A stretch of 52,087 bases of DNA, filler included, from Sphacelaria rigidula (taxonomy: Eukaryota): assembly GCA_964200075.2 (NCBI GenBank). It is 4 parts of 4 records of this genome, joined end to end, with 100 filler letters (N's around TTAATTAATTAA, not from the genome) between each part and the next. Parts side by side here need not be neighbours in the genome. Positions count along the whole stretch, not along the records: positions 39,143 to 52,087 come from CAXNAA020003279.1; 3 more parts are not named here. One strand, written 5' to 3'. This document shows positions 8,501-52,087 of this stretch, in pieces; position 1 is the stretch's first letter, and each line of letters starts with the position of its first letter. A program made the translations under genes and the position numbers. The notes beneath the pieces were generated by a model, which saw only the letters and a list, made by a program, of their open reading frames with translations, was not told the DNA's origin and ran no database searches.

Positions 8501-8580
8501 CTATCTGACAATGTACCACTTATTACACATGTTCATTTTGATACGGGATTTGAGCGTCACCGCTTGACACGGAAAAACAG

Positions 8581-10455: not shown

Positions 10456-10535
10456 TATGACAGTACGGGGTCTTTCATGGTGCGAGAAATCTGAATCTGT
10501 GTCCATTTCTGAGTTGTGAGAAGGCTTGTCGCTAA

Positions 10536-11055: not shown

Positions 11056-11257
11056 AATGCGTGAGAGGACCGCGTGCTTAGAGGACCGCATCGGAATTTA
11101 AACACCCCTGTGGTTAGGGTTAGGGTTAGGGTTAGGGTCAGGGTCAGGGGCGTGGTACCTGTAGGGACTGGCCCGATTGCTTTTGAAAAACATCGATCCT
11201 GCGGTGTTTTGAACTACGGCGCGGTCCTCTAAGCACGCTGTCCTCTCACGCATTACA
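11056..11257. mobile_element. TTAGGG-containing MITE next to an (AATC)n microsatellite
   Basis: Same TIRs and interior as 6479-6701. Confidence 0.85.
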
Positions 11258-12427: not shown

Positions 12428-12948
12428 TTTCTTAGGTTATTGCACGTTATGTATGACTTTAATAACGTACGTACAGCATGAATTTGGTTGTGATCGCACG
12501 CGTTGTCGCGTCGTGTAACCGCTGTAAACTCGCCTATATCCTGGGGCGTGTATTTTGTAACCCGGTTTACGCTATGCGCATGCTGTTGAACTTGCTGATA
12601 ACCTGGGGATGCTCCGAAATGCGGGTAACATTTACCAGCGACCACCCCTGTACCGTAGGGACGAGAGTATTTTATAGGTCAATGGCCTAGAAAATGTATA
12701 CTTTCTCGTTTTTTGCCTTGGAAAGGTACGAAAAATGGCTAGAAACGCGAAAACAGCCAAACACGCCATTTTGACCGTTTTCGCTCCGGTTTTTTCACGC
12801 ACATCGTTCGCGGGGGCCATCGGCACCCGGGACTCGAAAAAGACGGATAAAAAACACGTTACTCGAGAGATATGGACGTGCGAAACGGACATTTCGCCTC
12901 CAGAAACCGCTTACCTTTTGTAGGCCACATTTCGCCGAGGTATACCTG

Positions 12949-13048
12949 NNNNNNNNNNNNNNNNNNNNNNNNNNNNNNNNNNNNNNNNNNNNTTAATTAA
13001 TTAANNNNNNNNNNNNNNNNNNNNNNNNNNNNNNNNNNNNNNNNNNNN
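12949..13048. other. Artificial contig linker
   Basis: N44-TTAATTAATTAA-N44 (stops in all six frames); identical to the other two gaps. Confidence 0.97.
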
Positions 13049-14385: not shown

Positions 14386-15482
14386 CAGGCTGGTTCAGAT
14401 TGAATACCCAAACTTTATTCCCCCGCTGATGAACGCGATACGCAGCCAGTATGCAAAAATGTGGTATCATACTGACCGCAATGAACAGACAGAAATGGTG
14501 ACATAGCCAATTTTTTGTTCAAGGCTATAGCGGTGGCGCTATGGACAAAAGTATGTCTCGACCAATCGGCGCCCTTCAAATTGTTCCGAAATTGAAAACA
14601 CGAATTCCAAGCCCAATTTCCACCGAACCCCCACCAGGTTCAAATCGTGGTAACCGTCATCAGCCTGGGAATCTAACGGGAGAAACAGAGTTGAAAACGG
14701 TTCCAACGAGGTCGAATTTTGCCCGAAACCGTAATGTTTCGGTGATGTGAAGCTTTGGCGTCGTCTAATTTCCACTCGTACGAAAGACCCAGGGAGCCTC
14801 GTGACGATTTCCCCTTTATCTGTTGCAGAAATGCTCAGATCACCCTGAAAGTTGGCAGTTCCGTAGGTATTGATGTTCCTCATGGAAAAATTGCCTTTTT
14901 GGCAAGATTTCAAAGTTACTCCGTTTGTTACCGGCTTCCGGGGATCCCAGCATGAAGGCCCCCGAAAACTGGTACAGAATGCCTCAACACCAACATTTTG
15001 ACACCATAGGGCAAGTGGTATCCCAAGGAACATGTGTATCAATTCTCGTAGCTCAACTCGAAAAACTGAGTCGGCTGGGTCTTTTACCGTAAAAACAACC
15101 CTCAGAAAGGGCGATTCTATACTTCATTCAAGTTATTAGGGGGCGACGCAGACTTCAGCGCACGTTTTGGCATGTTCTCACGCCGTTTTTTCGACTTAGA
15201 CCACGAAACTTCGCACACATGTTCTGGAGGGCACTATCTAAAACTCGAAGACCGGGGTTTAAAAAAGAAAAAATGTTGGTGGCTTTTTACCCAAGGTCGC
15301 GTTTGACCTACTTGACCGGGGGAGGGGTCAGATCCCGACTACCTCGACACAAAAAAAAACGGTTTTCGACTTTAGATGGTGCCCTCAAAAACACGTGTGC
15401 AAAGTTTCGTGGTGTAACTCGAAAAAACGGCGTGAGGAAACCCCGGGGAATGAAGTTTGGGTGTTCAATCTGAACCAGCACG
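14386..15482. mobile_element. Non-autonomous DNA transposon with ~38-bp TIRs and TA duplication (Tc1/mariner-like)
   Basis: gctggttcagattgaatacccaaactttattcccc versus ggggaatgaagtttgggtgttcaatctgaaccagc; TA on both sides. Confidence 0.85.
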
Positions 15483-16092
15483 TAGAGCTGCTGCAAGGTT
15501 CGTAGATTCGGCGGTTGTTGCAGTTGTCGTTGGTAGTCCAATGTTTTAACTCACTTGAAAGTTACGTGAAGCAAATTATTCGTCCGCCATATTATCAGGC
15601 AGGTTCGGACATGTCTTTGTCCCTCTAGTGGTCGTTGGTCCAACATGTTGGCGTCGGCTTAAGGATGATGTGATGAGGAAACACAACAGGCACGTCCCTA
15701 CCAACCCCCAAACAAGTACTCAGTGGCACTCGCCAAATACGTACAGCAGTCAGCTGCATTGGACTTACAAATGCAGTACGTGACCTCCTCACTTCAAATC
15801 AAACTGGAGCAAACTTGGAGCATCATACGTGTTCCGACTCCTTACTTGTGAGCAAGCTGCGGCGAAGATTTTCTTCACCGGATCTGCAGACGGGTTGAAC
15901 GTTGTCGTGGTTTATGCAGTGGCCATTGATATTCCGGCGGGTATCCTCCTCAGTTGAAGCCCGGTGATGGTGATCACGTTTTTTTCTCGCCAGATCTGCA
16001 AAGAGGTTCGAGGATGTATTGCTAGGTGCATCACACCTCCATAATGCACTTCTTGGAGCATCCTCGACATATGTTGGTCCCTACACTTTAAC

Positions 16093-16511
16093 AGCCTGGA
16101 TTAGTTATTGAGGTTCAACATTTTAATGAGTTTCAACTCGAAAACAGTGCTTTCCCTGACCTGAAGTCGTGACCTATGAATTTCACATGGACGACCTCAT
16201 GCCCCCCGACCTCCTCAAAACTATTCCTGGGGGTTGCCCGTATCCCGTGCCCCTAAAGCGTATGTGCGAAAGCACCTTTTTAGCCTCAATATCGGGGCGG
16301 AAAAGGGGACGTTTTTAGCCCGAATTTGGTGCTTTCGCACATACGCTTTGGGGGCACGGAAGACGGGCAACCCACGAAAATAGTTTCGAGAAGGTCGGGG
16401 GGCATGAGGTCGTCTATATGAAATTCATAGGTCATGACTTCAGATCAGGGAAAGCTCTGTTTTCGAGTTGAAACTCATTAAAATGTTGAACCTCAATAAC
16501 GAATCCAGGCT
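16093..16511. mobile_element. Foldback MITE, near-complete hairpin
   Basis: ~190-bp inverted arms (agcctggattagttattgagg... / ...cctcaataacgaatccaggct) around a short loop; no clean TSD. Confidence 0.9.
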
Positions 16512-19500
16512 CTTCCATGTAGACGGCCCGCGGTGTACACAAATATATCTACCATGATACCAATGCCTCTCGCATAGTTCGTGTTCGGCTTTAAATGTCT
16601 CAACAACCGCTCGTATTTTATTCATAGGATATGTGGCTAGCTACACGTCGATATATCCATCGCCACACATGATGAAATATGATCGGGGAGCGACCTCGTG
16701 TCGTGCACATGTCGGCATGAACCCACTCGACCTCAATGATGTGGACATATACTGCGGCTACCATGCTCCCAACTGCAGCACATACCAACATGTGTTTTGG
16801 AGACCCGGAATGTGCTGTCTTCAATGTCAACTTCAGGTATCTAGTGGAAATTCACAGACGCATCTAGAGCGTGAAGCGTTTCGGTTCCTATGGAATCAAA
16901 CACCTCGGTAATCTACCGCCGAGAACCGCCGTTGTCGACATTCCCACCGTGCAACAGTACTGTGCTCTACCGTATGGATATTGGTTTTCATTTGAAATGA
17001 GAGATTTCTGTAGTTTTCCCGTAGTCGGCGAATTTTGATATTTTTTTCGCCTGCCTCTGCTTATCCCAGCAAGCGGTTGTTCCCAACTTTTGAGAGTCGA
17101 GAGATACTACTAGGCATCCGTTCCACATTACGAAACGAAATCGTCATTGTGCTCACATTGAACGACTTCCGAACTGAGCCGACAGGAGATGTTGTTCAAC
17201 ATTCTTGGTCCGGAACACATTTTGTTTGGGCTCTTGCGCAATGGACAGGTAAGAGAGAAGTATATATATCCGTAAAATCATTTTCATGAGAGTGATGGGA
17301 TTTGGTTCACCCCCACCTGTGCTATCCAGAGCTCGGTTGGGCAATTTTCGATTTTGGGTACTTCACGAATTTTCTCGTCTGGTATCCGTTCTTGACGCTT
17401 TAACCTCCTGGAGTCGATATATATCCGGAAGAGGAGCAGGTCGTGCTCAGAGCACAACCCTCAATTGTTATTCTGGGGAAGATATCGAATGAGGTCCTTA
17501 TTCATCAGGGAATGTTATCGACTGTTTCTGATCCACAAAACCGTTCTTCGGCTCTAGAACAATTATTAGGTGAAGAAATTCGAAGAATCAATCGCTGTCA
17601 TTCACCTGTGGGACGGATTGCATTTGCTTCAACCGAGCAAAAATGCGCCAGGATCAGAACCTGGGACTGGGTGAACTCGGGATCCCCTAAAACCGGTCAG
17701 CCCGTGAGGCCTTAGATACTGGGCGCGAATGTGATCTTTGTGTGGATGGTATCTCCCGATCACCGAAGTTTGCCATCAATCGTTTACTGGGATGAGCGGT
17801 GGTACGCCAAAACACTTTCCGATATCTCCGACCACGAAAAAACTACGAAAATCTCTTATTTCAGATGCCAACTTCAGTACCGTAATCATGTACGCGTGGA
17901 AATGAGGTGAGTGAATCTCGACACCGACAGCCGTCATGTGTGCGGATTCCCAAGTGTAGCACTGAAGGCAAAACCAAGAGATTAGAAACGATACGTTTAC
18001 CAGAGCATCAATGTACCGAGGAAGGAATGGACACAACACCAACCAAAACCGAAAAGAGCGAAAGCCATTTGCAAATTATCGACGTTGCCTGACTCACCGC
18101 ACCACGCCCAAGTACTCTTGTTCCACCACCAAATGTTACCACTTCCTGTAGTATCGTACGGTCACTGCACTGAGCCGAAAATCGTAGAAACGGGAACAAG
18201 CCACTTTCCTCAAAAGCGGACAAATACTAATGTTCTCAACCAGGTGCTCCACCACGTCACGAGCAACTTCACCTTGCACGTCAACGGTTTTCTTTGAGCA
18301 TTTGGTTTCGTTTTCACTCGATACTTCGATATTCTTTGCTGAGACCTCTGGTCAGATGCGAGGACATAACACGCGCGCACACAGTTACTGAACAGTCACG
18401 TCCAAACCCGCTTCTTCTTATCTGAACACTTACCTGAAGACGTGTTACCGGTGATGCATCCAGATGTTGCTCGAACCTTCCTATGGGAACTTGCAGAGAG
18501 AGAGAGAACTTCTCCGAATGGGGATTGCCCCTGAAAGGCGCTTTTCGCCTCCATCTTGTTGAGACAAACGACCTGTTATCGGAGAAATCGAAGTTTGTCG
18601 ACACAGGGGACCACCATAACGCCTCCGTAAAGAATGGTGCGGTCAGCTGTGCAGACGGAGAACGTACATGAGGATACAGCTGCACACATCGAGTACAGAC
18701 AACACAGGGCACGATGGAGAAAGACTACATTGCAGCCAGTGCCGCTGTGTAACTGTATATCCAGTACCCACAGGTGTAGCACATAGTCGTTCAGTACGTG
18801 CATGCAGCACAACGGCAGCAGCATACTGTAGGGTGCGTGCAGTGCAGCAGTGCAGATGGGGCAGTATAGTACAGAAATACGGACAACGGACGGTACAGCG
18901 GCCGCCGTTTCGCACACCAGGTAAGCCATTTCAAGTATCACGGTGAGCGGGCGTACGCGCTATTTGTTTCCGGAAATGTATGAAACAGTTCCGAAAACTG
19001 CTGTTCCTGGAAGATTGTCACTGGCCGACGTTTTGCTTAGTCGTCGAATCATAGGAAGCGACCTCAACAACAAGGGCATTGAAAAAAACATGTATGATTG
19101 TTCCGATAAATCGAAGCACAGTTTGAGGTGTGATTGCACCTCGGGCCCCACATGGTACAATTGCCGCGGGTTTCTATGGCGAGTTCGTTGTGGGGCACGG
19201 TTTTTTTGGAGGTATCTACACTGTATGGTATGTGTTATCCACGGCCCGGCATTACGTGGTACACATATTCTGTTTCACGATACGGCACGACACGGTGACA
19301 GAGATTCACGACACGGTTTCATTGTGAACGGGGCGTACGAATATTCGTTTCCATAATATGGTAGATTCGCATATGTGTGCGTAAACCAGGAAAACGTTCA
19401 TTATACTGCGGAACACATTCAGGGCAAAGAAAATTTGCTTGGTTCGTATTATCTTGCTGAAACTTCCGCTACAAGGCTCACTTCAGCCGGCGACCAAATA

Positions 19501-21852: not shown

Positions 21853-22143
21853 GTAACGACACTGCTGCAGTGGTTATCTCTGTCGCCTGCTAACTCAACG
21901 ATTGATGTGTCAGTTTACTCTAGCGCACGTGCCCATATGCGACCGAGATACTATGACGACAGGTTTCCTATCTTTCACATGAGCACGACCTAAGATTATC
22001 TTCGCTGGTTGATTGGTGCAGGGTGCTCCTGAACTGGTCAGGGGTTCTCGTAAACGAGTTTGTGACAGTGCGGATCGTAGCAGCAGCAGCAATAGCAGGG
22101 ACTACCGTGACCTTGTCTCTTCTCTGGCGCGATTGTGCAGGGG

Positions 22144-24327
22144 ATGCCTGGAATGTGCATCCACACGAGTTGCACCACGAGAGCATCGTGGGGCAGAGCG
22201 GGTAGCGGGATGGCGGAGTTCTGCGCGACACACGCCCGAGCGGGCATGATCGATGTGAAGAAGAAGCAGTGCGGCAAGGAGGGCTGCTCCACTCAACCGT
22301 CGTTCGGTGCAGCCAGCAGCAGGGAAGGGGAGTTCTGCGCCGCACACGCCCGAGCGGGCACGGTCCATGTGAAAAACAAGCGGTGCGGCAAGACGGGCTG
22401 CTCCACCCAACCGTCGTTCGGTGCAGCCGGCAGCAGGAAAGCGAAGTTCTGCGCGCAACACGCCCGAGCGGGCATGGTCACTGTGAGGAAGAAGCAGTGC
22501 GGCAAGGAGGGCTGCTTGAAACACCGGTCGTTCGGTGCAGCCATTGGCAGGAAGGCGGAGTTCTGCGCCGCACACGCCCGAGCGGGCATGGTCAATGTGA
22601 ACAGCGGGCGATGCGGCAAGGAGGGCTGCTTGGAACAACCGTCGTTTGGTGCAGCCGGTAGCAGGAAGGCGGAGTTCTGCGCGACACACGCCCGAGCGGG
22701 CATGGTCAATGTGAAGAAGAAGCAGTGCGGCAAGCAGGGCTGCTTGAAACACCCGTCGTTCGGTGCAGCCATTGGCAGGAAGGCGGAGGTCTGCGCGACA
22801 CACGCCCGAGCGGGCATGGTCAATGTGATAACCAGGCGATGTGGCAAGGAGGGCTGCTTGAAACACCCGTCGTTCGGTGCAGCCATTGGCAGGAAGGCGG
22901 AGTTCTGCGCGACACACGCCCGAGCGGGCATGGTCCATGTGAATAGCAGGCGATGTGGCAAGGAGGGCTGCTTGAAACACCCGTCGTTCGGTGCAGCCGG
23001 TAGCAGGAAGGTGGAGTTCTGCGCGACACACGCCCGAGCGGGCATGGTCAATGTGAAGAACAAACAGTGCGGCAAGGAGGGCTGCTCCACTCGACCATCG
23101 TTCGGTGCAGGCGGTAGCAGGAAAGCGGAGTTCTGCGCGACACACGCCCAAGCGGGCATGGTCACTGTGAAGAGCAGGCGGTGCGGCAAGGAGGGCTGCT
23201 CCGCTCAACCGTCGTTCGGTGCAGGCGGTAGCAGGAAGGCAGAGTTCTGCGCCGCACACGCCCGAGTGGGCATGATCGACGTGAAGAGCAAGGGATGCGG
23301 CAGTAATCGCTGCTCCACGATATCATCGTTCCGTGCCGGCGGCAGCAGGAAGGCGGAGTTCTGCGCGACACACGCCCGAGCGGGCATGGTTAATGTGAAG
23401 AGCAAGCGGGGTAAGGACGGCTGCTCCACAATACCGTCGTTCGGTGCAAACGGTAGCAGGAAGGCGGAGTTCTGTGCCACACACACGGGTGCAGGCATGG
23501 TCGATGTGATACGACGGCGGTGCGGCAGGGAGGGTCGCTCCTCACGGCCACCATCCGATGCAGTCGGTGGTAGCAAGGCGGAGTTGTGCGCCGCAGACGC
23601 CCGCGCTGGGACGATCCTCATGGACGGCGATGAATGCGCCTCGCAGCATCATTCTAACCTGGGTCAGGAGCACGGGAACACCTACCGTGGTGCTGCGCAT
23701 GACTTTATCGTATGGTCTGATCTCATGGGACATATCCGAGAAAAAAACCCAGCGAGTGATGACTTCGTCACGGGAGAGACTGTCGCCAGTATGGATGATG
23801 GATGTGAAAAATCCGATCATCCACCGAATGCCGGTCCCAACACGAACGATGATGGTCGTAACGCTGATTCTCGTTGCAACCCACGTGTCATCCGCGACAG
23901 GCGACGGGGTGCAAATTCCACGACCATGTCGCCTGCCCCTTTGAGACATCCCCCCGGCCCGGCGGCAGCAGATAGGGTTACTATAGGTGGGGCAGAGATG
24001 CGCATGAAAATCAAAATGGAAGAGACTGTTGCGCCTGCGCGAGATTTCGAGGGGATACGAAGGAGCAAACGAGTTATGGCGGGATCCAGCAGTTACGACA
24101 ACATGGGCCTGGGCGGCTCAAGCAGGACTACTAGAAGCCGAAGTGGTGCTAATAGCATCAACAATGGGAGAAACACGAAGCGGCTTCGCCGGACGGCCCA
24201 GGTGCAGCCGGTACTTAACGTGGCAGTCGGGGATGATGTAATGTCTGAAGATGACGGAACCGACGTGAAGTTAGAACTGAACGTCTCCGCAGCTTCATCC
24301 CGCCTGCGGAAGAGGCAAATTGAATAG
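22144..24327 (+). CDS. EsV-1-7 domain protein (12 plus 1 degenerate 38-aa C-x4-C-x16-C-x2-H repeats, low-complexity basic C-terminus)
   Basis: Intact ORF with repeat consensus CGKEGCxxxPSFGAAGSRKAEFCATHARAGMVNVKxxR, typical of the EsV-1-7 family expanded in brown algae. A pyrimidine tract plus tgcag acceptor at 22140 just before the ATG suggests an upstream intron. Confidence 0.9.
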   Translation: MPGMCIHTSCTTRASWGRAGSGMAEFCATHARAGMIDVKKKQCGKEGCSTQPSFGAASSREGEFCAAHARAGTVHVKNKRCGKTGCSTQPSFGAAGSRKAKFCAQHARAGMVTVRKKQCGKEGCLKHRSFGAAIGRKAEFCAAHARAGMVNVNSGRCGKEGCLEQPSFGAAGSRKAEFCATHARAGMVNVKKKQCGKQGCLKHPSFGAAIGRKAEVCATHARAGMVNVITRRCGKEGCLKHPSFGAAIGRKAEFCATHARAGMVHVNSRRCGKEGCLKHPSFGAAGSRKVEFCATHARAGMVNVKNKQCGKEGCSTRPSFGAGGSRKAEFCATHAQAGMVTVKSRRCGKEGCSAQPSFGAGGSRKAEFCAAHARVGMIDVKSKGCGSNRCSTISSFRAGGSRKAEFCATHARAGMVNVKSKRGKDGCSTIPSFGANGSRKAEFCATHTGAGMVDVIRRRCGREGRSSRPPSDAVGGSKAELCAADARAGTILMDGDECASQHHSNLGQEHGNTYRGAAHDFIVWSDLMGHIREKNPASDDFVTGETVASMDDGCEKSDHPPNAGPNTNDDGRNADSRCNPRVIRDRRRGANSTTMSPAPLRHPPGPAAADRVTIGGAEMRMKIKMEETVAPARDFEGIRRSKRVMAGSSSYDNMGLGGSSRTTRSRSGANSINNGRNTKRLRRTAQVQPVLNVAVGDDVMSEDDGTDVKLELNVSAASSRLRKRQIE

Positions 24328-25920: not shown

Positions 25921-25995
25921 TTCGGACTGAACAAGCTTAGCAGGATGCAGCGCACCCTTCATGCGACTCGCCGAGCACACCACGGCGCTTCGCGC

Positions 25996-26095
25996 NNNNN
26001 NNNNNNNNNNNNNNNNNNNNNNNNNNNNNNNNNNNNNNNTTAATTAATTAANNNNNNNNNNNNNNNNNNNNNNNNNNNNNNNNNNNNNNNNNNNN
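25996..26095. other. Artificial contig linker
   Basis: N44-TTAATTAATTAA-N44. Confidence 0.97.
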
Positions 26096-28689
26096 GGTCT
26101 GATGACTATGGCATGCGAGATCATGAGTACACCCCATGGTGCTGTTCACTTTTATACACCCTCGCGAGTGAGCACTGCTGCTTGTTTTATGCAGTTTGGG
26201 GCACACACAGTCTCACTACCCCACACACTTGCACTGTATGTAGGTGTGGTTTTGCTGTTCTTCGAGGTAATCATGATGTTGGGGCGCCGCCGTGGTTGAC
26301 ATAACACGGTGTGATGGGGTGCGGAATGTTGACATGGGCCCCACACCGTTTAGCATGAAGCTGTCGCTTTTTCCATCTTTACGGGTGGAAACTGGATGAA
26401 GGGGATGGAAAGTTATCAAAAGTACACCTATCGTTTAAAACGGCTTTAATAAAATATTTGGCAGCTGAGAAAATATCAAGATATTCAGCATCATCCCAAT
26501 TTCACGTGTTTTAGTGCTGAGGGTCTTCTGCACATCTGCTGTTGGCAGATGATCGTCTGGACCGGGGTGAGAGATTCACACTTTCGATTGGGCTTATCCA
26601 GTATCCAGCCCCCCCCATCGTCAACAGTTCCGAGAAACGAAGCATGAACGGTAGGTGACGCAGCTGGGGTTTGCACACCAACGGTGCTCAGGCGCATGCA
26701 GCATATGCTACAACGTGTGCTGCACTGTGCTGTGTTATGCTTGTGCGAGGGCATATCACCCGAGACTACCCGTACGAGCTGATTCACGCTTGTCACCAAA
26801 AATTGTGTCATCAGCGAATGACTTCCGCAATACCGACCCAAGAGTCGCATACATGGTACACGATGACCTGAAGCAAAACAAAATATGTACGCGCGTCCTG
26901 GCCTAGTCCATGAAAAGGTTGTACAGAGTTTCGTTGCGGATCTCGACAACCCGATGCGGTTTTTCTCGCTTTGAAGTTCAAATACGTCTCAAAACAAAAA
27001 TCAAGTACTTGGGAATTTGTACGGTTAGAGCTCTTTCAGCGCACAAAAGCGCAAATGTCAACGTCAATTCTTGGAGTCAGACTCTGAAACATTGCACACA
27101 TACGCTACGGGACGTCACGAAAAGATTTAAATGCCGGCTTCCGATTTTAGATATTTTGCTATTTTGCGACTTATCGGGCGTGCCAGACGGGCATGTGATC
27201 CCCAGAAATCCCACCAACACCCTGGAACACCCGATAGCTGCGGAACCCCCCCCCCCCACCCGAAAGACCCATATTCCATACTATATGTGTACAAGGTTCC
27301 AAAGTCTCAGACCAACTCTTGTAGGAGCCGTTCACACATATATTTTTGAAGAATTTGAGTGGTTGGTACAAAACCATTCCTACGAAACAAGTTCGTGACG
27401 ATTTCGAACACAATTGATCCCAAAAAATTGAACGTTCCCTTGATCTTGGCCAAGCGCTCAGAATCGGGTGAAAATTTGAACACCCGGTCAAAATTGAAAA
27501 CCCGTTCGAAGTTAGGCGAAGAACTAAAATGGAGGAAATGTCATGTTTCACCGTGCTGCAGCACAAACATGCTCACTGCCCTCTCTCACATGCTGCAGCT
27601 ATCCTGTACTGTGTTGTGTTTAGATCTCGGTAAGCAGTTTGGTCTTCACTGGGATTGCCTGGGCTGCTGTACCGTTATTGTGCTCTCCTCAGTGTGAAAC
27701 ATTTGCAGTTGGCACGCGGTGCTGTCTTGTCAACTTTGAAAATGCCATGATGTCTTTGTTGAATATTGTTGTGTCTTTCGCGACGAACAAGGCGCTTCGT
27801 GCCGGAACCATCACTCCTGTACCGTAGCTGACACTGTAGTGTTGTGCGTTAGAACCCTGCGGAGACAGTTTGATCTTCGCTGGGGACTGCATGAACTGCT
27901 GTACTGTTGCTGTGTCCCGCTCGGTGCAAAGGTTGAAGTCGGCATATTGTGCTGTCTACACACCGTTGAAAACGTCATCATGGTGTGTTGGCTGTTGCGT
28001 CGTCTGTACAACGTACAAAGCGCGTCGTACCCAGATCCACCATTTCTATGCTGTAGTTTACGTTGCACTGCGGTGCGTATGAACGCTACGAGCATGTTCT
28101 GATCTACGCTCGACATCGCCTGAGCTGCTATACAGTAGTGGGCGGTCTAACTATTCATTTTGAGGCATTTTGTGGTTTCTTCGTAAGTGGCGATTGTACT
28201 ACCGCTGTTTTCCGGTCTGTACAGAATTAAGGTGGGTACGAAGTGCTGCCTACACGAAGTCGGAAAAGTCACGTAATGGCTGTGCAGCCGTTGCGTCTTC
28301 TTTGGGTGCAGTTGTAAAGGTGCACAACTCCTAGGTGACGCCAACCTCATGTATGTGCAACTCCAACTTGTTCGACGGGAGTTATTTCTGTCTCCGTTCA
28401 GAATCGCGGAATGCAAAAAACGGCGTTGAATTTTCAGATATAATGTTTTGAACGACTCTCACCAGAGTTGGTCTTACTCCAAGAATCGTGGCAAACATTT
28501 GCGGATGAACGATTTCCGGGTGACGAGCGTAAACCAGCTCGCCCCCATCAGCCTGGTCGTACGAATATTTACAGAACGGCAACGTGCATACTGGGACGAA
28601 ATGTAACCCCCCCCCCCCCCGGGGGTGACGCCCCTCTGGCGATACTTCCTTCAACCTTCTCGACATCAAAGTCTGGGTGCCACGCCAAA

Positions 28690-38866: not shown

Positions 38867-39042
38867 GTACGGAATACCGATTGTTTGTAGGTGCGGTATT
38901 TGCTTGCTTCTTTGCTCGAAATACCCGTGAATAAATCGCTTCTGAACCCCCCCTCCCCCCCCCCCTTGAGGGCTAAAATGAATAGGCGGGGTAGGAAGAT
39001 GTACAAATGAAGAACCGATGAACTAGATATGGAAGAGAAACG

Positions 39043-39142
39043 NNNNNNNNNNNNNNNNNNNNNNNNNNNNNNNNNNNNNNNNNNNNTTAATTAATTAANN
39101 NNNNNNNNNNNNNNNNNNNNNNNNNNNNNNNNNNNNNNNNNN
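39043..39142. other. Artificial contig linker
   Basis: N44-TTAATTAATTAA-N44. Confidence 0.97.
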
Positions 39143-39215
39143 CGCTGTATGGCCCTTTTTTTCGTGACACTTTTAGCTGGTTTTGGGGGGGGGGCTATCG
39201 TAGAAAGTGTCCCAA

Positions 39216-42200
39216 GCGTCCGGAGCCGTGGCGAAAGCTGTCGCAATGAATTCTCGGGGGGAAACGATGCTAGAGCGGATGGAGCCCACCCTGTCCAATT
39301 TGGAGAAGTACTTCACAGAAAATCCGAACGTGGAACTAATATATCGTTCTCCCGATGGTGAGTTCATTCCCGGCCCGGCTGCAGAAATCACTAAGGCTTT
39401 GGTGGAGGGGTTGGCACCGGAAAAATTCAAGCAAGCCGTGCTTCTTAAGCTGCAGCACCAAACAGACTGGAAGGCCGACCCGTACCTGATGATGAGCACC
39501 GTCGTGGCCGAGGCCAAGGAGTGGCGGAAAATAGAGGTGTTCGGCCAGTCGTCCACCCCTTCGCCGAAATCTTTGGTCTATCATGGCTCGAAATCGGTCG
39601 GTCGCGCCGCGAGTATTACTTGTCACCGCTGTGGCCCGGTCGACCAATACGCGCGCGATTGCCTAACGTCTTCCGGTGAAGAGTCTGGGCAGTCTAGTGC
39701 CGCGCGCCATCAGCATCGTCAGCACAAGGGAAAAATACGAGGTAATCGCGGTGGCGGCGGCAGATCCTCCAGCGATGGAAGGTCGCAGGCGAGCCCTCAG
39801 TAGCAGCCGCAGCAGCAGCAGCAGCAGCAGGGGCACCGGCGTCAGCATGAGCCTGACTCTGGATCCGGCGCCGCCGTGGGTGCTGCTGCTCCGCAACGGA
39901 CGGTGCAGGTGGGCCCGAAATCTACAGCGTCAAACACTGCGCCGGCGCCACCAGCAGCAGCACCAGGCGCGACACCTGTTGACGCGCTGGTCGGAGGGTC
40001 GCCAAATTCTTGGTTTGCTGGCTGGGGGGCGTACCCGCCGGCGGTGCCGTTTGAACCTGCCGGGGCGTCTTCGCCGGCACAGCTTGCGCAGCCGTGGCGT
40101 CAAGTGGGATTAGCGGCGCATAGGTCAGCGGAAGAAGTTCCCGTGGTACTTGCCGACAAAAACATTCCGGCGGAGTTATGTCTTCCTAATCAACGGCAGC
40201 GGGGAGCCATTGTGGTTCGGTCTGTATTGGATTCTGGCGCCCATTTCACTAGTCTGCCGGTGCAGCTGGTTGAGATGCTGGAGCGTCAACTCCCGGGTGT
40301 GCCGCTGCGCATTCCATTTTCGCTCGGGGCGTGGCAGGCAGTCACCGCGTCGGGTCAGCATGTTTCAGTCACGGAGCGTGCTGTTCCATTGCAGCTAGTC
40401 TTCAAGACTGCTTGGGGGCTGGCGACGTTGCCTCTGATCTCGTTTGCGATTATGCCAGGGTCGGATGGCGTTGTTCTTCTGGGGCTGCCGACGCTACAGG
40501 AACTAGGAGTCGACCCGTATGAGCGGTTGAAGGATTCCATCAAGACGCGGTTGTCTCCGCCGGGTCCGCACGTGGAGACGGCCGCCTTTTTGGGCAGTAG
40601 TCGCATGAGCTTGCCGGTGCATGTTTTTCAGGAAGCTGGGAGGCAGGTGACCGAGGAGCGGAATGCGGCGATGGAACGCTTAGTGGAGCGCGGCCCGAAT
40701 ATGTTCATGGACCCGGCGGAAGAGGAGTCCGCTCGGAAGGTCGCGCTGGAGGAGAGCGTGACGGATGCTGTGACGAAAGGCCTCAGCGTCTCCAAAGCGG
40801 AACGCCTGCGCGGCATCTTGCATCGCTGCGTCAACGCGTTTCGTCGTGCGCTGCGGGGTGATCCCCCTGCGCGCGTAGAGCCCATGCGTGTTCAGCTGAA
40901 ACCTAGGGCATCCGCGGTGAAGGCGAAGCCGCGGCGGTGCGACCCTGTGAAGTCGAGCTGGTTGGCGTCGTGCATGGCGCCTCGTTTGGCGCTTGGGTTG
41001 GTAGTGCGGAACCTGCAGGCGGTATGTTCCAGTCCGGCGATAACGATTCCCAAGAAAGACTCGTTTCGCCTGGTAAGCGACTACAAAGCCGTAAATGATC
41101 AGGTTGAGAAGTCGCCGGGTGTGGTGCCTAATCAAGTGTCGGACATGCGTGATCTCTCGAGTGCTCATTTTTTGGCAAGTTGGACGTCCTCCAAGGTTAT
41201 TGGCAGATGCCGTTGGCGGAGGAGGCGCGGGAGATTTTCACAATGACGCCCTCGTTAGGCTTGTTTACCCCGAAACGAGTACCGCAAGGCGTGTTGAATG
41301 CAAAGCCATATTTCAAGGTATCATGACAGAATTGCTTGTCGGCTTAAATGCAAGGTATGGGTGGATGATATGTGTTTTTTCGCGGATATGGAAGACGAGC
41401 TTTTAGAAACGCGTGATGCTATCTCGGCCCGTTGAGAGAATGTTGGTTTGTTTGCGGCGGCGCACAAATGCACTTTCTTCGCTAGTGAACTCGTATGTTC
41501 TGGGAAAGTGTACTCACATGGACGCGTATCTCATGACCCTGTCAGATTGCAAGGCTTGTCTGACATGCGGCGCCCGGAGACGGCCGCAGAACTCATGCAA
41601 TTCCTGCAGGCCGTGAATTGGCTGCGTACCTCGTTGCCGCGTATGGCAGAAATCGTAGCTCCCTTGCGTTTTTTCCTCGGAGAACTCATGGCGGGTGCTG
41701 CGAGGCGGACGAAGCGTGTTGCAAAAAACTGCGCTATTCCACCTGCATCGTGGACGGAGGGTAGGTTGCAGGCGTGGGCGGCAGCGAAGGGCCTGGTGGC
41801 TCACGCCGTGACGCTGTTCCATCCTTGTTTTGATCGTCAGGTGCTAATGTTTCCGGACGCATCTGAGTGTCATTGGGGTAGTTTCGTTACGCAGGTGCCT
41901 AAAGCAGAAATGCAAAGACGCCTACCAGTTGAGGACATGACGCATGAACCGCTGGCTTTCCTCAGTGGTAATTTTACGGATTCGCAGTTGCGTTGGGCCA
42001 CAATTGATAAGGAAGGTTTTGCTATCGCAAGCATTTTTCGTCGTTTGGAGCATTTTTTGTGGGATGGCGTGCACATTTTCACGGATAACCGGAATCTCGT
42101 GTATATTTTCAACCCGGAAGTGTGCGTTACGTCTGTGTCGAAAGCATTGGCACAACGTTTGGAGAGTTGGAAAGCTGTTCTTGGCCAGTACAGTTACTCG

Positions 42201-44110
42201 ATTTGCCATATTTCGGGTGACCGTAACGCGTGGGGTGACTTGCTTTCGCGTTGGGTGAATATTCCGGCTTTGCCTGTGCGCGCTGTGGCTGTGTATGGTT
42301 CATGTGAACCTGATGACTCAATACCATCCAAATTTGTCGTCCACCAAGCGCAACGAAAAGACCTTGGGGCCGAGAATGCGGATGTGCAATCCTTCGAGTC
42401 GGACGTCGGTACTACTATCTCGAAGAATGAAGGTCTCTTTCGTGTGCATGTGCGTGGCCGAAACGTTTTGTGGATTCCGAGTTCTGACAAGCAGTTGTAG
42501 GTACGTCTGATGGTTTGCGCGGACATACGCGACGCCGGACATTGTGGTGTGGCTGCAACGCTCGTGCACTTGCAAGACTTTTGTGTCTGGCAGGGGATAG
42601 AAACCCATGTGTGCGAATTTGTTCGCCAGTGTCTTCACTGTGCTGACTCGAGGGCGGGCGATGTTGTTCCCCGCCCGCTCGGCGAAGCGGTTCATGGGAC
42701 CACGCTGAATGAAGTCGCTCATTTTGAATTCTTGTACGTGGGCGAGAGTGGCCCGCTAGCTTCCCAAGGGTTGTCGGAGGATGCTGGGTTTCAATACATT
42801 TTGGTAATCATGGATGACTTGAGCAACTTAGTGGCGCTGGAACCAGTAGTAGTGTGTACTACTGAAGCGACTGCTGCATCTTTGCTGAATTGGTGCAAAC
42901 CTTTGGGGGTGCCGCGTGTGTGGGTGAGTGATATCGCCAAGCATTTCAAGAATGCGATCTTGGCCCCATTGCAAGAGGATTTACACCTTGATCACCAGTT
43001 TGCGGTGGCGTATTCTCGGTGATCTAACGGTACGTGCCAACGCATGGTCAAGGAAGTAGTTCGTGCTCTTCGCTCTATTCTTCTCGAGCAGCGTAGAGTA
43101 GTTCCCGAGTGTGTGGACGTGTTGCCGGCGGTGCAATGGGCGCTTAATACAGCGTATCGTCGTCGGTACGAGAGTACGCCGTACCACGTGATGTTTGGTC
43201 GTGCCCCTTGGACGTCTTTCTCGGTGCTGGCATCTTCGTCGGCGGGGGAAGGGAAGTGTGATGTTTTGGACGATGTTCAAATCAAGCGTGCATTGTAAGG
43301 AGTCTTGGACATGCACGAATATTTCCACGTTCAAGTGCAGGAACGTGTTGCAGCTGAACGTGCGCGTAGACGTGAGGGGTTCTCGTCGGGGCTGCAACTG
43401 CCGAATTTTGAGGTATGCGACTATGTCTTGTATGCACGCGTGTGTCGTCCTGGCGTTACGCCCAAGTTGATGGCGACTTGGACTGGTCCATGGAGAGTGG
43501 TTGGTGCTCACCACTCGCACGTGTTTGAGACTCAAAACATTGTTTCGGGCCGTGTGCAGACCGCCTATGTAGCTCGTTTGCGTTTTTATGCAGACTTACA
43601 GCTTAACGTTACGGCTGACGTTAAGGACGTGTTCCAGCATGCTTTCAATCAGGGGCACTTTCAGATGGCTGGTATTGTCCGAGTTGCAGAAGCAGACGAT
43701 CGTTCGTTGATCGTGTTGGTCGACTGGGTTGGTTTCGAAGCTGAGGAGCGTGTGTGGGGGCCTTTCAACGATACTTTTGAGGCCGCTCTGGAATTTTTCA
43801 CGAAGGAGTTGCGTGAATTGCGCGTGACTCGTGCCGTTGCTGCTCATATTTTGAATGAGTTTGGTATTCAGTTGTGACTTACTCATCGTTTGAGCGTTTT
43901 CTGTGTGCCAAGCTTCTTGATCGATTTTCGTCCAACGCGCCTTGGGGGTGCTGTGACGAATTAACGCCGTTACGTAGAGTTGGTAGTGATGATCTGGATA
44001 ATGACCATTGGTAGTGATAATCTGGATAATGACTGGGGACACTAGATTGTTACCCTGGCGTGTCTAGGAGGCTGTGCCTACGAGGGCACTCTTGAATAAT
44101 GAGAATGCTG
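39216..44110 (+). mobile_element. Ty3/gypsy retrotransposon with chromodomain, 5'-truncated and frameshifted
   Basis: Gag knuckle CHRCGPVDQYARDC, protease VLDSGA, RT (FRLVSDYKAVN, WVDD), RNase H (FPDASECHWG), integrase (GHCG..CLHC), chromo-like VLVDWVGF, G-rich PPT then LTR starting tgtgacg at 43952. Confidence 0.92.
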
Positions 44111-44119: not shown

Positions 44120-47100
44120 ATAACTGAAACTGAGGCCAGTAAGATGGGGGAGTCCCTCAACAGCAGTGATCCAGAAGTTCTTCCACTGGCTGGCGTCACA
44201 AGACACGTCCGTTCTCGTACTTTATGCCCCTGCATGCTGACCTTAAGGCTGAGACCCGGTATCACCACTTGCTGCACCGTCCACGATCCAGTCCACAAAT
44301 CGTGTACTAGTTTGGCCAGCACATCTTCGTTGGAAGGGAGCTGTCCGACTCTTTGACTAGCATCAGGTCCCCTACCTGAGCTCGCGATCCTGCCGACTGG
44401 CGAGTCATCTCGGCATTTCTAGCTGATCTTACCTCTTCCCTTCGTTTATGGCGTTGCATTAATAACTCGTGAGCCTCCTTCAGATTCTGTCGCTGTTGTT
44501 CCACCGTGCTATTCAACGGTGGAGACCCCGCTTCAGGCGACACAGCGTCGATTTGAGTGCGCGGCTCGCGCCCCAAAAAGCAGATTTAATGGCGTCGGGT
44601 TGTTAGACAATGACGGGTCTGGAGTAACAAGGTGAATCCATACAGCGGAATCTACGTTCTCATCCTACCTTTCCGGCCACTGCTTACATAATTCGGCTAA
44701 AACGTCGTGCAACCACCCTCCGTACCTTTCCACCCCGCCCGGACCGCGAGGGTGCTCTGCTGAACCATAATCCAGCTTGACCATAATCCACAGGCATACA
44801 TGGTTTACTACTTCCGGAGTGAAGTCCCCCCCAGCGTCACTTCCAAGCAAATAGGGCATTCCGAACGTCAAGAAGAGCTTCAGCAGACATTTAGCTACGG
44901 ATTCAGTGACCTTGGCGGCCAGTGGGAAGGCAAAGAGAAACTCGGTTGCTCGATCCACAACGACCAGCAACTACCTATTACCCGAGGTAGAAACCTGCTT
45001 CATTTCCGATACGCCCATCTCTAGTACCTCCCATGGCCACAAGAATCGGGCGGGTCGCATCGATATGGTGTGAATCTTAGTACGCTTGCGTCGGCGACAT
45101 CCACAAGGCAACGCGTATCTGCGAGTATCGGCGGAAAGGCCGAGCCATTCATAACGTGCGTTGACCACTGCAGTCGTCCTCATTACTCCGGCGTTCCCCT
45201 GCGTAGTGTGCATCAACGCCAGCAGGCCTGGCACTAGACTGCGTGGAACAGCACTTAGCTGGCGCGCTAGGTGAGGTATGCCATACAAGATTATCCTCAT
45301 CTAGGACGTACGCATCCTGCCCCTTATCAGCTCCTTCATCCTTATGCTGAGCAATGCTATGGTAGGGGTGCACCTTTTTCGCGAAATATTGTCTAGTTCA
45401 GGGGCTCCTAACGATTCTAGATGCACAAGAATATGGGTCAGGGCATCCCCGTTCGCAAATTCATTCGGGATATCCCCGGCACATTGGAGTAGTAATCCTG
45501 GCGTACTCCCACATATTTTCATGAGTAGTGTTTTGCCTGAAATCAAGGACTTCTCACAATTTATACCTCAGAAAATATTTTGTGTACCCCTACTGTAGCA
45601 TCACTCTGCTCTTCTTCTCACCTATCCTTGATGGGTCCAAGCCGGGAGTCCCGCTTGCAGTAATACGAGTCGCGGTCTATCCATCAAGATCGCTCTCGCC
45701 TGCTCGAGAACGGCCCTAGCGTTACATTTACCTGGTATCTGTGGCTCCTTAGTTGAAGTCTCTCCCGTACGAGAGTATTGGTTTGACTCACGCCCTGCCT
45801 CGGGAACAGTCGAGCGAGTTACGGCGGCTCCCCAAGCTTCTGATAACTCTGCTTCCTCACGCGGCCATATCGCGGCGAGCGCGTCGAGACCCACATCCTC
45901 ACTCTGAATCTGAGTCAGGCTCAACAAACCTTCCGCCTCCAAGCTTGATAGAACCGCCTTCATCATCCACGGATGAACGAAACTAGCCACAATGTCTGGC
46001 ATGGTGTCGTTGTTCACCGTGGGCGGGGTCTCGCAACGGTCGAGGGTGGTCGCGACTCTCACGAGATCGACTCTTTCCAGCTCGACCGCTTCCTCACACC
46101 CCCCTGCGTCCGCCCCGTGGGGTTTGACTTCCTCGCGCCTGGCCTTTCGTTAGCCGGGATTGAGATAACCTGGGCATCGTATCCTCGAAGTCGTGAATAG
46201 CCTTGCCTTGTCCCGTCGACTCCAGAAAATAGGTGCCGGTCCGCCCCAATAGCTGATCCAACGTGGGGCAGGCAACGGCGTACGCTTTCACTCGCTGCTT
46301 CCACGCTCTCAGTGGCCCTTCCCTCCGGCGATCAACTTTCAAAGCGACCACATAGGTCCGTCTCTTCCGATACAGGGCGCCCACCTGCACGACGGGGACT
46401 GAAGCTTGCTGGGTGAGGCAACCGGCTCCGCTCAAAAACGGAGCCACGCGCCCCTTCCAACCCGGAGAGTTCACCATTACAGCAGTACTCTCCAAGATCA
46501 GAGTTGTCACCGAGGCTGAGGAGAGAAACGACTCGACCAGGTCTTGGACAACGTTGATGGATTCCGATTTCGCCGCACCCCTCTCAATGGAGGCAACCCT
46601 ACTCGTATCTCCTACCAACACTTCTGGTTGCACCTCCTCCACAAGGTTGTAGAAAGAACGGCGCCCCGGAGTCGTACATCCCGGCTGACTCCCCTTCCAG
46701 TTTGGTTTACTGAAACACAATCCAACGTTTTCCAATCTGCATCGGTGGCTGCGACCACCTCCAAGAACTACTCCGCAGCCAGAATACTCCCTCCGCCTCC
46801 ACAACGGACAATCAAAGCGAGGGGCCGTTGCTTAACCGGTCCTGGCATGGAGTACTTGAAGTCAACGGTAACCACGGCCCCCGTTTCCGGTAGATACAAC
46901 GCGCTGAATTCCTCCAACGCCAAGGCCATGACGTCCGCGGTTTCTTCCGGATATTCAGCCTCCAGTTCCTCAAGTAGCATTCCATCCAGTTTGGGTCCTT
47001 GCGGTCCTCCCTCTCCGCCTGGTCCGGCTTCAGAGTCATCGTCAGGGAATGGCACATCAATATCGCTTCCCCTGTCTTGGCTTCCTTGCAGTCAAACAAG

Positions 47101-49300
47101 GCGTCCGTCAGCTGGTCTTCTTGTCGAGCTCTCCACTTGAGAACCATGTCATACTCCATCGACCTCAGCGGCCACCGATGGAACTTAGGCGACAGGTTAT
47201 GACCGCGAAACAGCCGTGTCAACGCACTGAAATCCGTAACTAGCGTAAACTCTCGCTCCCATAGATACGATCTAAACAGCTCTACCGATCACAAAAGAGC
47301 GACTACCTCTTGCTCTGATGCCGACCCCGCTTCATCCGCTCGAGACCATCTATGACTAGCGTACTCGATGATCCATTCCCTCTCGTCCGCCTCCTCGGCC
47401 AGGGCGGCCTCTGCCGCGTACTCTGAGGCGTCTGAGTATAGCACGAATCGCATTCCAATCCGGGTACACCAAGATCGGATACGATATCAGAGCTCACTTC
47501 AAGTCCACAAATGCTTGTCGCTGCTGGGATCCCCACGGAATCGTCATCCTCCGCGCCCGCTTGGTGGCGAATCGCTTGACTCTCAGCGAGTCCATGAGCA
47601 GCGCTGCCATGCTACTGTGCCCATCTTGGCCTCCTCGGCTACCAACTTCCGGAGCCATTCCAAGGCGGTGACATCCCCAAACGGTACACGCATCACGTCG
47701 CCTGCTAGGCTGGGCACCTCGATGGTAGTTCTCCTCCAATCCGTCATTTCAGTATAGATGGCTGAGATGAATAGCACTACGCCTGTCTGTGTGTTGATCC
47801 GCTTGTGGTTTCAGCGGCTTGGTAGTCATGTGAGCGTCTGTAGGTACCTTTCAATTTTCCCCTTCATACGCCGCTAGCGTGGTACGGAAACGCTTCAAGG
47901 ACAAGGCCGCGGAGTACGGTAGGTCAGATCTCCAGCTCAATTTACGGACCGTCGCTTATACACTTTAGTGTCCGCATCCTTAGATCCCAAGAACTTGGCC
48001 AAGGTGGAAGCCCAGCGTGCCACCAATTCCTGGTGTCTCAGTATTGCAGACCAATTACGGTCGAACGGCTGGGCAGGAGGTGCAGGAATGCGGGGATACG
48101 TGGCTCCGTACGGTGTCACCCCATCCAACTTGGATTGGACCGCTGGGGTTGCACCGAAGACTAACCGGGTCGGGCGCAACCATATACCTGGAGTGACGCT
48201 GCGGGGGCAACGGCGGCGGAGGCGGCAGCTGGGAATCAGTGAAATTCCCGGCAGCCGGCGTTTGCAGGGCCCACTGAGGCGCATAGACTAGCATTGCCTG
48301 CTGATGAGGCGGAGGAGTAGACGGCGGGACGTTTTGGTGCCTGGGGACAAGGTGCCCCCGCTGTTGCTGCTGAAGAATCTGCCACTGCGGCGGCGGCGCG
48401 GCAGCAGCCTGCTGCTGCAGGAGAGGTGCAACGACCTGCTGCTGAGGGGGCGCGGCAACCTGCTGCTGCTCGAAAGGTGCGACGGCCCGCTGCTGCTGAG
48501 GAACTTGCACAGGAGGCTGTTGGGCTGACCCCGGCGGGTAGAAGGGTTGAACTTACGGGTTCAAGGGATTCCCACTCATCTTTCGCCGAGTTTGAGTTGG
48601 CTATGTGATACTTGGAACCTTAAACCTGCACGCACGTACCACATGGATATGACAACGATTGATCGCACCCCGTATTATTTATAACAGTGTCTTACGTCCT
48701 CTGTAAGCTCAGAGGCTGGGATGTGGTTGAAAGACATTCCCAGATCATCAACGGCGTGAGGAATCATGAAACAAGTAACATGAACGGCAGCGCTCCTCCA
48801 GCAAAAAATGAAAGCGGACACCAGAAAGGGGGAGGAGAACGGACGGAACAGCAATCTCACCGGACAAAACAGGTTCATGCGTATGCATTTGGCCAACGTT
48901 TTCCTTGTCGGGGACAACCAAGGATAATTCCCTGGACCTCGACCCCTGCCAACCTGTTCGGGCACGCATGGGAACTATGGCTCCCATCAACGTGTTCGGA
49001 CAAGCACGGTCTTGACATCTTGGGCCTTCCTCCTCGTCCATTTTCCTGTATGCGGTGATTTCCTGCCGGCTTGCTGTACGTCGCAAGCATACTCCTGGTC
49101 CATACAACTTTTTACTTTATCCACCCAATGTCTGGCTGACATGCCAGTAACGTGCCTAGTATCCATGATAATTACACTCATCGTTCAGTACCAGCCAACA
49201 ACTCTCGTCGGTAGCTTTCCGGTATACTCTCGGCAAAGGAATGTGTGGAACCCGTGAACCCTCGAGACTAGAAGAATGTAGCCCTGTCCCGGTGACGGTC
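44120..49300 (-). mobile_element. Second Ty3/gypsy retrotransposon, decayed, with an extra domain between RNase H and integrase
   Basis: Integrase (LVVVDRATEFLFAFPL, GSDAGGDFT, GGVER) at 44300-45300; RT-end/RNase H remnants (QRQAFVDLK) at 47050-47750; Q/P-rich gag-like at 47900-48600; PBS-like tggtac at ~48640; probable LTR beyond it (right boundary uncertain). Confidence 0.75.
46100..46830 (-). pseudogene. Cytosine-C5 DNA methyltransferase-like domain within gypsy pol
   Basis: LIVRCGGGGSILAAE*FLEVVAATDADWKTLDCVSVN (motifs I-II), EVLVGDTS (motif IV position, no Pro-Cys), LILEST (motif VI ENV position), VGALYRKRRTYVVA (motif VIII, GVPQxRxR-like). Confidence 0.6.
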
Positions 49301-52037: not shown

Positions 52038-52087
52038 CACCCATGAGGCAGTGTATAAGCCGTGACTGTCTCAGGAAGTGGCGATAC
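52038..52087. repeat. 50-bp repeat at the end of contig 4; inverted copy of 2-51
   Basis: 46/50 identity to the reverse complement of 2-51. Confidence 0.9.

Follow-up and report, generated by a model that had tools for sequence, protein, structure and literature searches.

The window analysed here is a 52,087-nucleotide (nt) stretch of Sphacelaria rigidula DNA, to whose positions all coordinates refer, and it carries on its minus strand (about 48570 to about 44175) a decayed copy of a Ty3/gypsy retrotransposon that lies wholly inside one contig (CAXNAA020003279.1). Between the RNase H and integrase regions of its Pol polyprotein is a segment of about 304 amino acids (aa; 45922..46830, minus strand) that, judged by structure modelling, is a C5-cytosine methyltransferase fold, with motifs I to X in canonical order and with degenerate catalytic motifs. 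From its sequences, the family to which this copy belongs looks catalytically dead, and we give a probability of roughly one half to the reading that the domain now serves as a non-catalytic accessory that binds nucleic acids. A bacterial-type cytosine methyltransferase turned pseudo-enzyme within a brown-algal Ty3/gypsy Pol is apparently undescribed.

Fold and catalytic motifs of the element domain

The domain escapes conventional sequence searches. PF00145, the Pfam profile that the initial annotation of this DNA had put forward as a check, matched none of 14 window pieces or 7 sister frames, and PDB sequence searches with a single protein and with a profile gave 0 matches at E 10. Structural comparison did place C5-methyltransferases at the top. 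Specifically, a model was made of the domain of sister locus L022, where one natural 952-aa open frame runs from RNase H through the domain into the first part of integrase. Built from an alignment with 66 other rows, none of them a canonical enzyme, this model reached a pLDDT of 91 and a pTM of 0.88. The top 19 of the 50 rows listed by VIA were all C5-methyltransferases matched over the whole domain (residues 1-304; Z 22.6-13.0), led by 3lx6 (Z 22.6, root-mean-square deviation 2.8, 257 residues aligned), and the first non-C5 methyltransferase came at Z 11.9 over residues 1-166 only. Foldseek gave a best E of 3.6e-11 against the PDB, the best viral structural match was a siphovirus C5-methyltransferase (E 2.9e-16, TM 0.78), and PF00145 clusters appeared in 30 of 30 Atlas hits (score 0.95) for the L022-type domain and likewise for a Cladosiphon domain. 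The two-domain fold is complete in the L022 model, with motifs I to X in order. Together with the flanking Pfam matches, including those to RNase H upstream (PF17919, 2e-07; PF17917, 1.3e-06), this fold match bears out the original proposal of a C5-methyltransferase-like domain between RNase H and integrase.

Capture of the host DNMT2 was considered as a source and rejected. Dnmt2 does head the Foldseek list, but its Z is tied with those of bacterial Dcm and prophage enzymes, and both the sequence affinity and the target-recognition region of the domain are of bacterial type. A genome search with PF00145 returned only two short matches (2 of 2 candidates), which by their motifs we take to resemble DNMT2 exons.

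The segment recurs in the genome, where a DNA search (40 of 113 candidates scored) gave 41 matches, which, setting aside the window's own copy, are 76-87% identical. Given these matches and the open frames among them, a chance resemblance or an unrelated insertion is ruled out, and the segment is indeed present in sister copies. Besides L022, whose domain is 64-75% identical to the window pieces at the protein level, L017 has one natural 781-aa open frame with linker, domain and integrase. Across the sisters, Pol follows the order RVT_1, RT_RNaseH, Integrase_H2C2 and rve, which is that of Ty3/gypsy elements (Metaviridae), and it ends in a Tudor domain (PF21743, E 2.4e-07 to 1.6e-05 in L033 and L035). 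No pair of long terminal repeats (LTRs) was found in the window or in 11 sister stretches (<10 kb), the contigs being shorter than or near the length of the full element.

Further observations concern the family copies. L023, L025-L029 and about 10 more matches all start at query position 100, past motif I, and lack a 200-aa frame; this whole group may be a deletion derivative that was amplified. On the strand opposite the linker and domain, stop-free frames of 280-450 aa recur in L007, L011, L014, L017, L018, L022 and L024, probably as a by-product of codon use. At low depth, contigs from two sequencing runs presumed to be RNA cover parts of the family, which says nothing about whether it is transcribed.

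The initial annotation had reported motifs I, II and VIII and the positions of motifs IV and VI in order, and all were located on the minus strand of the window. It was equally right that the catalytic Pro-Cys is absent, since VLVGDTS stands at the motif IV position (46621-46601). Work on M.HhaI established that the catalytic Cys is the nucleophile, while a Glu and the second Arg hold the flipped cytosine, and C5 methylation requires the Cys. We tallied residues over 35 distinct contigs of the family, 31 of which have an aligned codon at the Cys column, and found Cys in 0 of 31 (Ser 25, Thr 3, Arg 2, Asn 1). Pro-Cys occurs in 0 of 30 loci, and one misaligned row outside this tally lacks it as well. 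The loss is therefore family-wide and not a matter of decay in the window copy. An enzyme that decayed in the window copy only is ruled out, as the sisters have the same motif. Among distant homologues (147 rows from 144 homologues), Pro-Cys is likewise found in 0 of the 66 rows covering motif IV, and the Cys column holds Cys in 29 of 67 rows and Ser in 18 of 67.

The other motifs show a similar mixture of loss and retention. The motif I-like glycine-rich loop (VRCGGGG, 46789..46809, minus strand, by sister alignment) keeps its glycines and lacks the Phe of FxGxG; His stands in 24 of 25 own copies, and no Phe occurs among the listed residues of 37 homologue rows. The acid of motif II (AATD in the window, in order at 46741..46752, minus strand) is kept, as Asp in 31 of 31 own copies and as Asp or Glu in 52 of 59 distant rows. 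At motif VI (LILEST, 46484..46501, minus strand, by sister and homologue alignments), the Glu is present in the window and kept in 27 of 33 own copies and 55 of 66 distant rows; Asn-Val is gone, with Ser or Cys in place of the Asn. The basic motif VIII (QVGALYRKRRTY, 46352..46387, minus strand, by alignments) has its second Arg (31 of 34 own copies), with Lys for the first Arg (30 of 34) and Tyr at the Gln position (34 of 34); the distant rows have the second Arg in 44 of 64 and Lys in 11, with the Gln lost. The motif X Asn is mostly or wholly gone across lineages. Thus, the marks of an active enzyme at motif IV (Pro-Cys), motif VI (ENV) and motif VIII (QxRxR) are all missing from the window family. 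With the nucleophilic Cys gone, the family would no longer write 5-methylcytosine (5mC).

Mutation patterns, examined in three overlapping reference regions, are consistent with this view. Private C-to-T changes occur at 11.8-19.9 per 1000 at CpG versus 11.4-16.7 at other C, CpG observed/expected is 0.83-1.03, and no hypermutation in CpG or any other C context was found in the family copies. There is no excess of CpG transitions and no sign of a mutational footprint of methylation, and a footprint of self-methylation was rejected on the same ground. Between this result and the family-wide loss of Pro-Cys, the first of two suggestions in the initial annotation, a methylase encoded by a transposable element in a methylation-poor lineage, finds no support for the window family.

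Bacterial-type relatives and published counterparts

A phmmer search returned 143 homologues, mostly fragments at 25-35% identity. Five of them (P0003, P0020, P0068, P0081 and P0138) show the same layout, with reverse transcriptase (RT) or RNase H ahead of the domain, those that could be named (3 of 20 looked up) come from Cladosiphon okamuranus and Nemacystus decipiens, and the PF21743 Tudor domain is found in Cladosiphon P0003 too. When 36 homologues were scanned with PF00145, P0026 (23.2 bits) and P0095 passed and three more fell below the cut-off. P0095 is an intact, bacterial-type enzyme of 296 aa, the sole intact enzyme among the 143, and it aligns end to end with the element domain (23% over 304 columns). 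When a profile was built from the element domain, P0095 came first at 83 bits, followed at 26-56 bits by a bacterial family, with the target-recognition region included; within this family, one protein shares 58% identity with a plasmid-borne sequence annotated ‘modification methylase HindV’ (1 of 20 listed rows). On these sequence affinities, the nearest intact relatives are of bacterial type (HindV/BsaHI-like) and probably not DNMT3, a distinction drawn from sequence-profile and structure rankings (DNMT3A/B at VIA Z 17.0-18.3, below the top of 22.6).

P0095 groups with P0147 and P0148 in a small clade of compact C5-methyltransferases, all intact; their contigs measure 1-2 kb and their target-recognition region has diverged. 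No relative of P0095 was confirmed in viral contigs, phage matches reach 28-35% only, and its single-sequence model was poor (pLDDT 43) and was not used. P0003 had no confirmed relative in metagenome contigs. Word-index protein searches, which are insensitive and no proof of absence, added little: 6 matches when the alignment served as query, and none in a search among long proteins.

HindV groups with BsaHI, HgiDI and HgiGI, which recognize GRCGYC, and M.BsaHI methylates the central C (PMC2413257). M.BsaHI, M.HgiDI, M.HgiGI and M.HindV are compact, as is the element domain, and have motifs I to X in the same order (PMC2413257). Their target-recognition region, with a TL motif and a downstream His, is homologous to that of the element domain (46090..46250, minus strand, by alignment and profile). 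However, these bacterial enzymes are stand-alone members of restriction-modification systems with intact FxG, PC, ENV and QxRxR, whereas the element domain is fused into Pol and has lost them. The TL motif with N-terminal Arg that marks the HindV/BsaHI/HgiDI-like group is missing from the window family: the Arg position, kept in 47 of 60 distant rows, holds Pro in 29 of 33 own copies, and the Thr position of TL holds Arg in 27 of 32. The His is kept in 55 of 61 distant rows. Judging from these residues, the element domain would descend from the GRCGYC methyltransferase family and not belong to it.

Retrotransposons with cytosine methyltransferases are known from other lineages. Those of Symbiodinium and Klebsormidium bear DNMTs with intact catalytic residues (de Mendoza et al. 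2018, PMC5890265). KnitGypsy-Dnmt3 of Klebsormidium nitens, SymbioDIRS-Dnmt3 and SymbioLINE-Dnmt resemble the present family in having a cytosine methyltransferase in Pol under purifying selection, and KnitGypsy-Dnmt3 is, like the window element, a Gypsy (PMC5890265). They differ in that their domains are Dnmt3-derived or Symbiodinium-specific, keep the key catalytic residues and reside in methylated hosts (PMC5890265), whereas the window family has bacterial-type relatives, motifs that are degenerate lineage-wide and a host group with DNMT2 only. The conserved catalytic residues of the KnitGypsy-Dnmt3 type are missing here. The dinoflagellate and charophyte analogy drawn initially holds as a functional one and fails as one of descent, the nearest intact relatives being bacterial-type.

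EpiLTRs of Euglena gracilis and Cymbomonas tetramitiformis are likewise Ty3-type LTR elements with a DNMT and a chromatin reader, and one DAM-LTR clade has an adenine methylase between RT and integrase (bioRxiv 10.64898/2026.05.21.726589). The EpiLTR DNMT is sister to DNMT4 and is accompanied by DAM and a chromodomain, whereas the window family has no DAM match and a Tudor reader; the accessible text of that preprint mentions neither brown algae nor Ectocarpus nor ‘Phaeo’ (bioRxiv 10.64898/2026.05.21.726589). Among brown algae, Ectocarpus has a Gypsy lineage with a Tudor domain, Gypsy-10_Ec32, for which a homologue is known from Tribonema minus (PMC12477816). Compared by description only, it shares with the window family a C-terminal Tudor domain on Pol, and no methyltransferase-like domain is reported for it, the terms ‘methyltransferase’, ‘methylase’ and ‘DNMT’ being absent from the readable supplements (PMC12477816). 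ALOG-bearing DIRS1 retroposons, including those of Ectocarpus, offer a precedent in a dead N6-adenine methylase that follows RT-RNase H, although it belongs to an unrelated enzyme class and, in a tyrosine-recombinase element, to an unrelated element class (PMC3537659).

Schizocladia has about 80% CG methylation, brown algae lack DNMTs except DNMT2 (PMC13076208), and DNMT1 was lost after Discosporangiales (Denoeud preprint). In the openly accessible literature, including the available parts of PMC12344493, PMC9998398, PMC6916402 and bioRxiv 10.64898/2025.12.07.692804, we found no brown-algal Gypsy element described as carrying a cytosine methyltransferase domain. That Pfam and PDB sequence searches are blind to the domain would account for its absence from surveys of methyltransferases and transposons in brown algae. 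The present family is a further, independent case of a retrotransposon that captured a cytosine methyltransferase, and it has features without counterpart in the published cases: a bacterial-type donor, lineage-wide catalytic loss and a host group that has lost DNA methylation.

Selection, dispensability and competing explanations

The ratio of nonsynonymous to synonymous change (dN/dS) was estimated from the 19 of 35 copies that span all regions, with changes in at least 3 copies counted as shared and private changes serving as the neutral control; the result was alike when all copies were taken. For shared changes, dN/dS is 0.22 in both halves of the domain (95% interval 0.14-0.34), 0.07 in RNase H, 0.08 in integrase, 0.13 in linker 1 and 0.20 in linker 2, this last value being lowered by the identity filter. 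The corresponding range for private changes is 0.76-1.26. Selection thus acted on the domain during the active life of the family, though less strongly than on the core enzymes and not more strongly than on linker 2. Across lineages, the domain can still be aligned where linker 2 cannot: it is 27-36% identical in 13 distant homologues whose next linker fails to align, and linker 2 gives no alignment in 16 of 19 homologues. Numbered along the L022 domain, Trp32, Arg51, Pro130 and Trp176, which are not shared with canonical enzymes, show conservation in 50-60 of 58-69 rows, as do the polar residues of the active site.

Related Ty3 families in the same genome do without the domain. Among 36 loci of such families (27 measured, 8 that could not be measured and one outgroup), 0 match it, and the distance between RNase H and integrase is 761-1078 nt in the 27 measured, domain-lacking loci versus 1606-1636 nt in 6 of 8 domain-bearing loci. 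The three domain-lacking Tudor families (L108-L123 and L128-L143) each have a spacer of their own with a basic RRS-R motif, and several of their loci have long open frames. In a tree of RT and RNase H, the domain-bearing Cladosiphon and Nemacystus elements fall outside a group of the window family and three domain-lacking families (support 1.0), a topology that suggests one old gain and later losses. This tree was built from partial protein rows with a distant outgroup and with P0068 omitted as too short, and its node joining the window family to one domain-lacking family has a support of only 0.79.

We propose that an ancestor of the Tudor-bearing brown-algal Ty3/gypsy lineage captured a compact C5-cytosine methyltransferase of bacterial or phage type and joined it, reading frame intact, to Pol at a point between the RNase H and integrase regions. 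This fusion is documented by fold, frame, position and nearest relatives, and we infer a bacterial or viral gene as the donor. In a host that still methylated its DNA, the original enzyme probably placed marks on fresh cDNA copies at sites containing CG. Its catalytic machinery would then have eroded lineage-wide, with the nucleophilic Cys lost in the window family, while purifying selection has kept the domain, which is presumably still produced within Pol and still folds. Its present role is most likely that of a non-catalytic, sequence-nonspecific accessory in the particle with RT or integrase, where it would hold cDNA or target DNA through the basic motif VIII face and the vestigial cytosine pocket. 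Because sister families have lost it, such a domain would be helpful but dispensable. The second suggestion in the initial annotation, a dead fold kept for another role, thus stands as to dead and kept; the other role would be the one sketched here, and three sister families manage without it.

Several results weigh against an accessory role. The dN/dS of the domain matches that of linker 2 and is about three times that of RNase H and integrase. The contrast across lineages between an alignable domain and an unalignable linker 2 speaks for retention, but it is biased since these homologues were found via the domain itself and some tails may be out of frame. The 27 domain-lacking loci belong to three sister families, 22 of them have a Tudor match, and the domain is therefore not needed for transposition. 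The absence of any direct Pfam or PDB sequence match also counts here. Finally, the window family lacks two residues of the target-recognition region with which bacterial relatives engage DNA, and any binding is therefore probably not sequence-specific.

The main competitor is a passive vestige that has no function of its own, with selection keeping the insert foldable and in frame and nothing more. On this view, a misfolded or frameshifted insert would ruin the downstream integrase, whereas clean deletions are tolerated and have occurred. This account is also consistent with the equality of domain and linker 2 in dN/dS, with three thriving sister families that lack the domain, and with the stepwise loss of catalytic, cofactor and recognition residues, which has gone furthest in the window family. 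However, if deletion were free, 900 nt of dead weight should not last across lineages that are 25-35% identical. The polar residues of the active site (Glu, Arg and the motif II Asp) are conserved, moreover, as are the four residues peculiar to the element domains. We hold a mere vestige to be unlikely, if well worth keeping in view.

It is also conceivable that lineages keeping the Cys (GNAC or GDAC with Glu and Arg) are still enzymes and that some families, the window family included, are dead. The chemistry might be a non-canonical C5 reaction on cDNA or RNA, or another reaction dependent on S-adenosylmethionine. Cys in 29 of 67 rows, Glu in 55 of 66 and Arg or Lys in 55 of 64 point this way, and the retained glycine-rich loop and motif II acid are, at the level of sequence, compatible with a cofactor pocket. 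In a 65-row domain tree, Cys-type rows appear in most branches and Ser types in separate groups, although the deep nodes are weakly supported. Homologue P0026 exceeds the PF00145 cut-off, and Saccharina has low 5mC with DNMT2 as its only known writer (PMC6916402). But no row has Pro before the Cys (0 of 66), the loop lacks one residue, and the motif I Phe, VI Asn, VIII Gln and X Asn have largely or entirely disappeared from all lineages. The same source cites a 5mC level below 0.035% for Ectocarpus (PMC6916402). Surviving enzymes in the Cys lineages strike us as distinctly improbable.

In a set of 52 rows that are related and hence not independent, the motif IV and VI columns (domain positions 76 and 114 of L022:1523-2434, minus strand) co-vary, with Cys/Cys in 18, Ser/Ser in 8, Cys/Ser in 3 and Ser/Cys in 0; this could be the trace of two paired Cys in the former active site. 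The Cys-type queries P0007 and P0020 found the same Ser-type family as their best genome matches, among the top loci inspected.

A bolder extension, to which we attach little credence, is that brown-algal retrotransposons harbour an overlooked, ancient, bacterial-derived clade of C5-methyltransferases, whose Cys members modify cytosine and whose Ser members, together with the Tudor domain, steer integration. If true, Cys-keeping members could explain the unexplained low 5mC of kelps, and Ser-type members would be base-flipping or cofactor-sensing readers. That the window family is an active writer of 5mC on its own copies, as proposed for SymbioDIRS-Dnmt3, is highly improbable despite the intact fold of the model, the purifying selection and the placement within Pol, since the nucleophilic Cys that C5 methylation requires is in 0 of 31 copies and no hypermutation in any C context is seen, with CpG observed/expected at 0.83-1.03.

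Whichever account of the domain prevails, families that have it coexist with families that lack it, as do Cys types with Ser types, and therefore offer a natural experiment on transposon-borne methyltransferases: on the purpose that they serve and on their fate once the host stops methylating. Outgroups that still methylate, such as Schizocladia, make the timing directly testable.

The window copy and its surroundings

The copy of the element in the window is heavily decayed. Its gag-like 5' region (47623..48570, minus strand), which begins Gln/Pro-rich, aligns with L038, L039 and L040 at 69-75% and matched no family in a Pfam scan. At an internal-deletion junction (47615..47625), where blastn alignments to L037-L040 skip >3 kb, the protease region and the RT core have been lost at about 47620; the sisters have RVT_1. 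The RT connection and RNase H follow (47097..47622, minus strand), with stops and frameshifts and with tblastn matches of 68-80% to sister frames. Next comes linker 1 (46831..47096, minus strand), which is acidic and Gly/Pro-rich and whose first half is common to the sister families that lack the methyltransferase-like domain.

The domain had initially been placed at 46100..46830. Its start held, and its other boundary moved to 45922, as the target-recognition region and the positions of motifs IX and X (45922..46083, minus strand, by alignment; ELERVD at 46083-46066 and FVHPW at 45981-45967) extend that far. Of the one stop and one frameshift first described in it, the in-frame stop was recovered by translation (46768..46770, minus strand), and there are two frameshifts, near 46690 (against 8 of 12 sisters) and near 46140 (against 10 of 12). 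Linker 2 and the start of the N-terminal region of integrase (45600..45921, minus strand, by sister alignment) are followed by an unrelated, very-high-copy repeat inserted into the window copy (45349..45599). This repeat is a gap in every sister alignment, has a summed contig depth at least 100-fold above its flanks and is also present in L042. The integrase zinc finger, core and C-terminal part (44206..45348, minus strand; PF17921, 1.1e-05; PF00665, 9.5e-04) complete the copy, which is cut near 44175-44200, ahead of the Tudor domain present in its sisters.

A second, unrelated and decayed Ty3/gypsy element (39204-43880, plus strand) faces the first. Its RNase H was confirmed, it has no methyltransferase-like insert, and its C-terminus looks chromodomain-like by eye. 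The runs of N at 12948-13049, 25995-26096 and 39042-39143, which flank a TTAATTAATTAA spacer, are artificial contig joins. A 50-nt inverted repeat is common to both ends of the window (2-51 and 52038-52087) and to positions 17-66 of L035.

Elsewhere in the window, an intronless 738-aa frame (22111-24327, plus strand) encodes 12 EsV-1-7 cysteine-rich repeats (PF19114, E 1e-164; 114-nt period), a family that has undergone expansion in brown algae and numbers tens of members in close relatives (bioRxiv 10.1101/2024.02.19.579948). This gene, the named Cladosiphon and Nemacystus homologues and the two short PF00145 matches make a brown-algal host very probable. A Copia-type Pol fragment (5804-6424, minus strand; PF22936) precedes a region (6467-11269) where copies of a 50-150-nt repeat are scattered in direct and inverted orientation, bordered by TTAGGG-like arrays. 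Long inverted repeats at 16090-16514 and 15177-15436 resemble miniature inverted-repeat transposable elements, with 187-nt arms at 91% and 66-nt arms at 89% identity.

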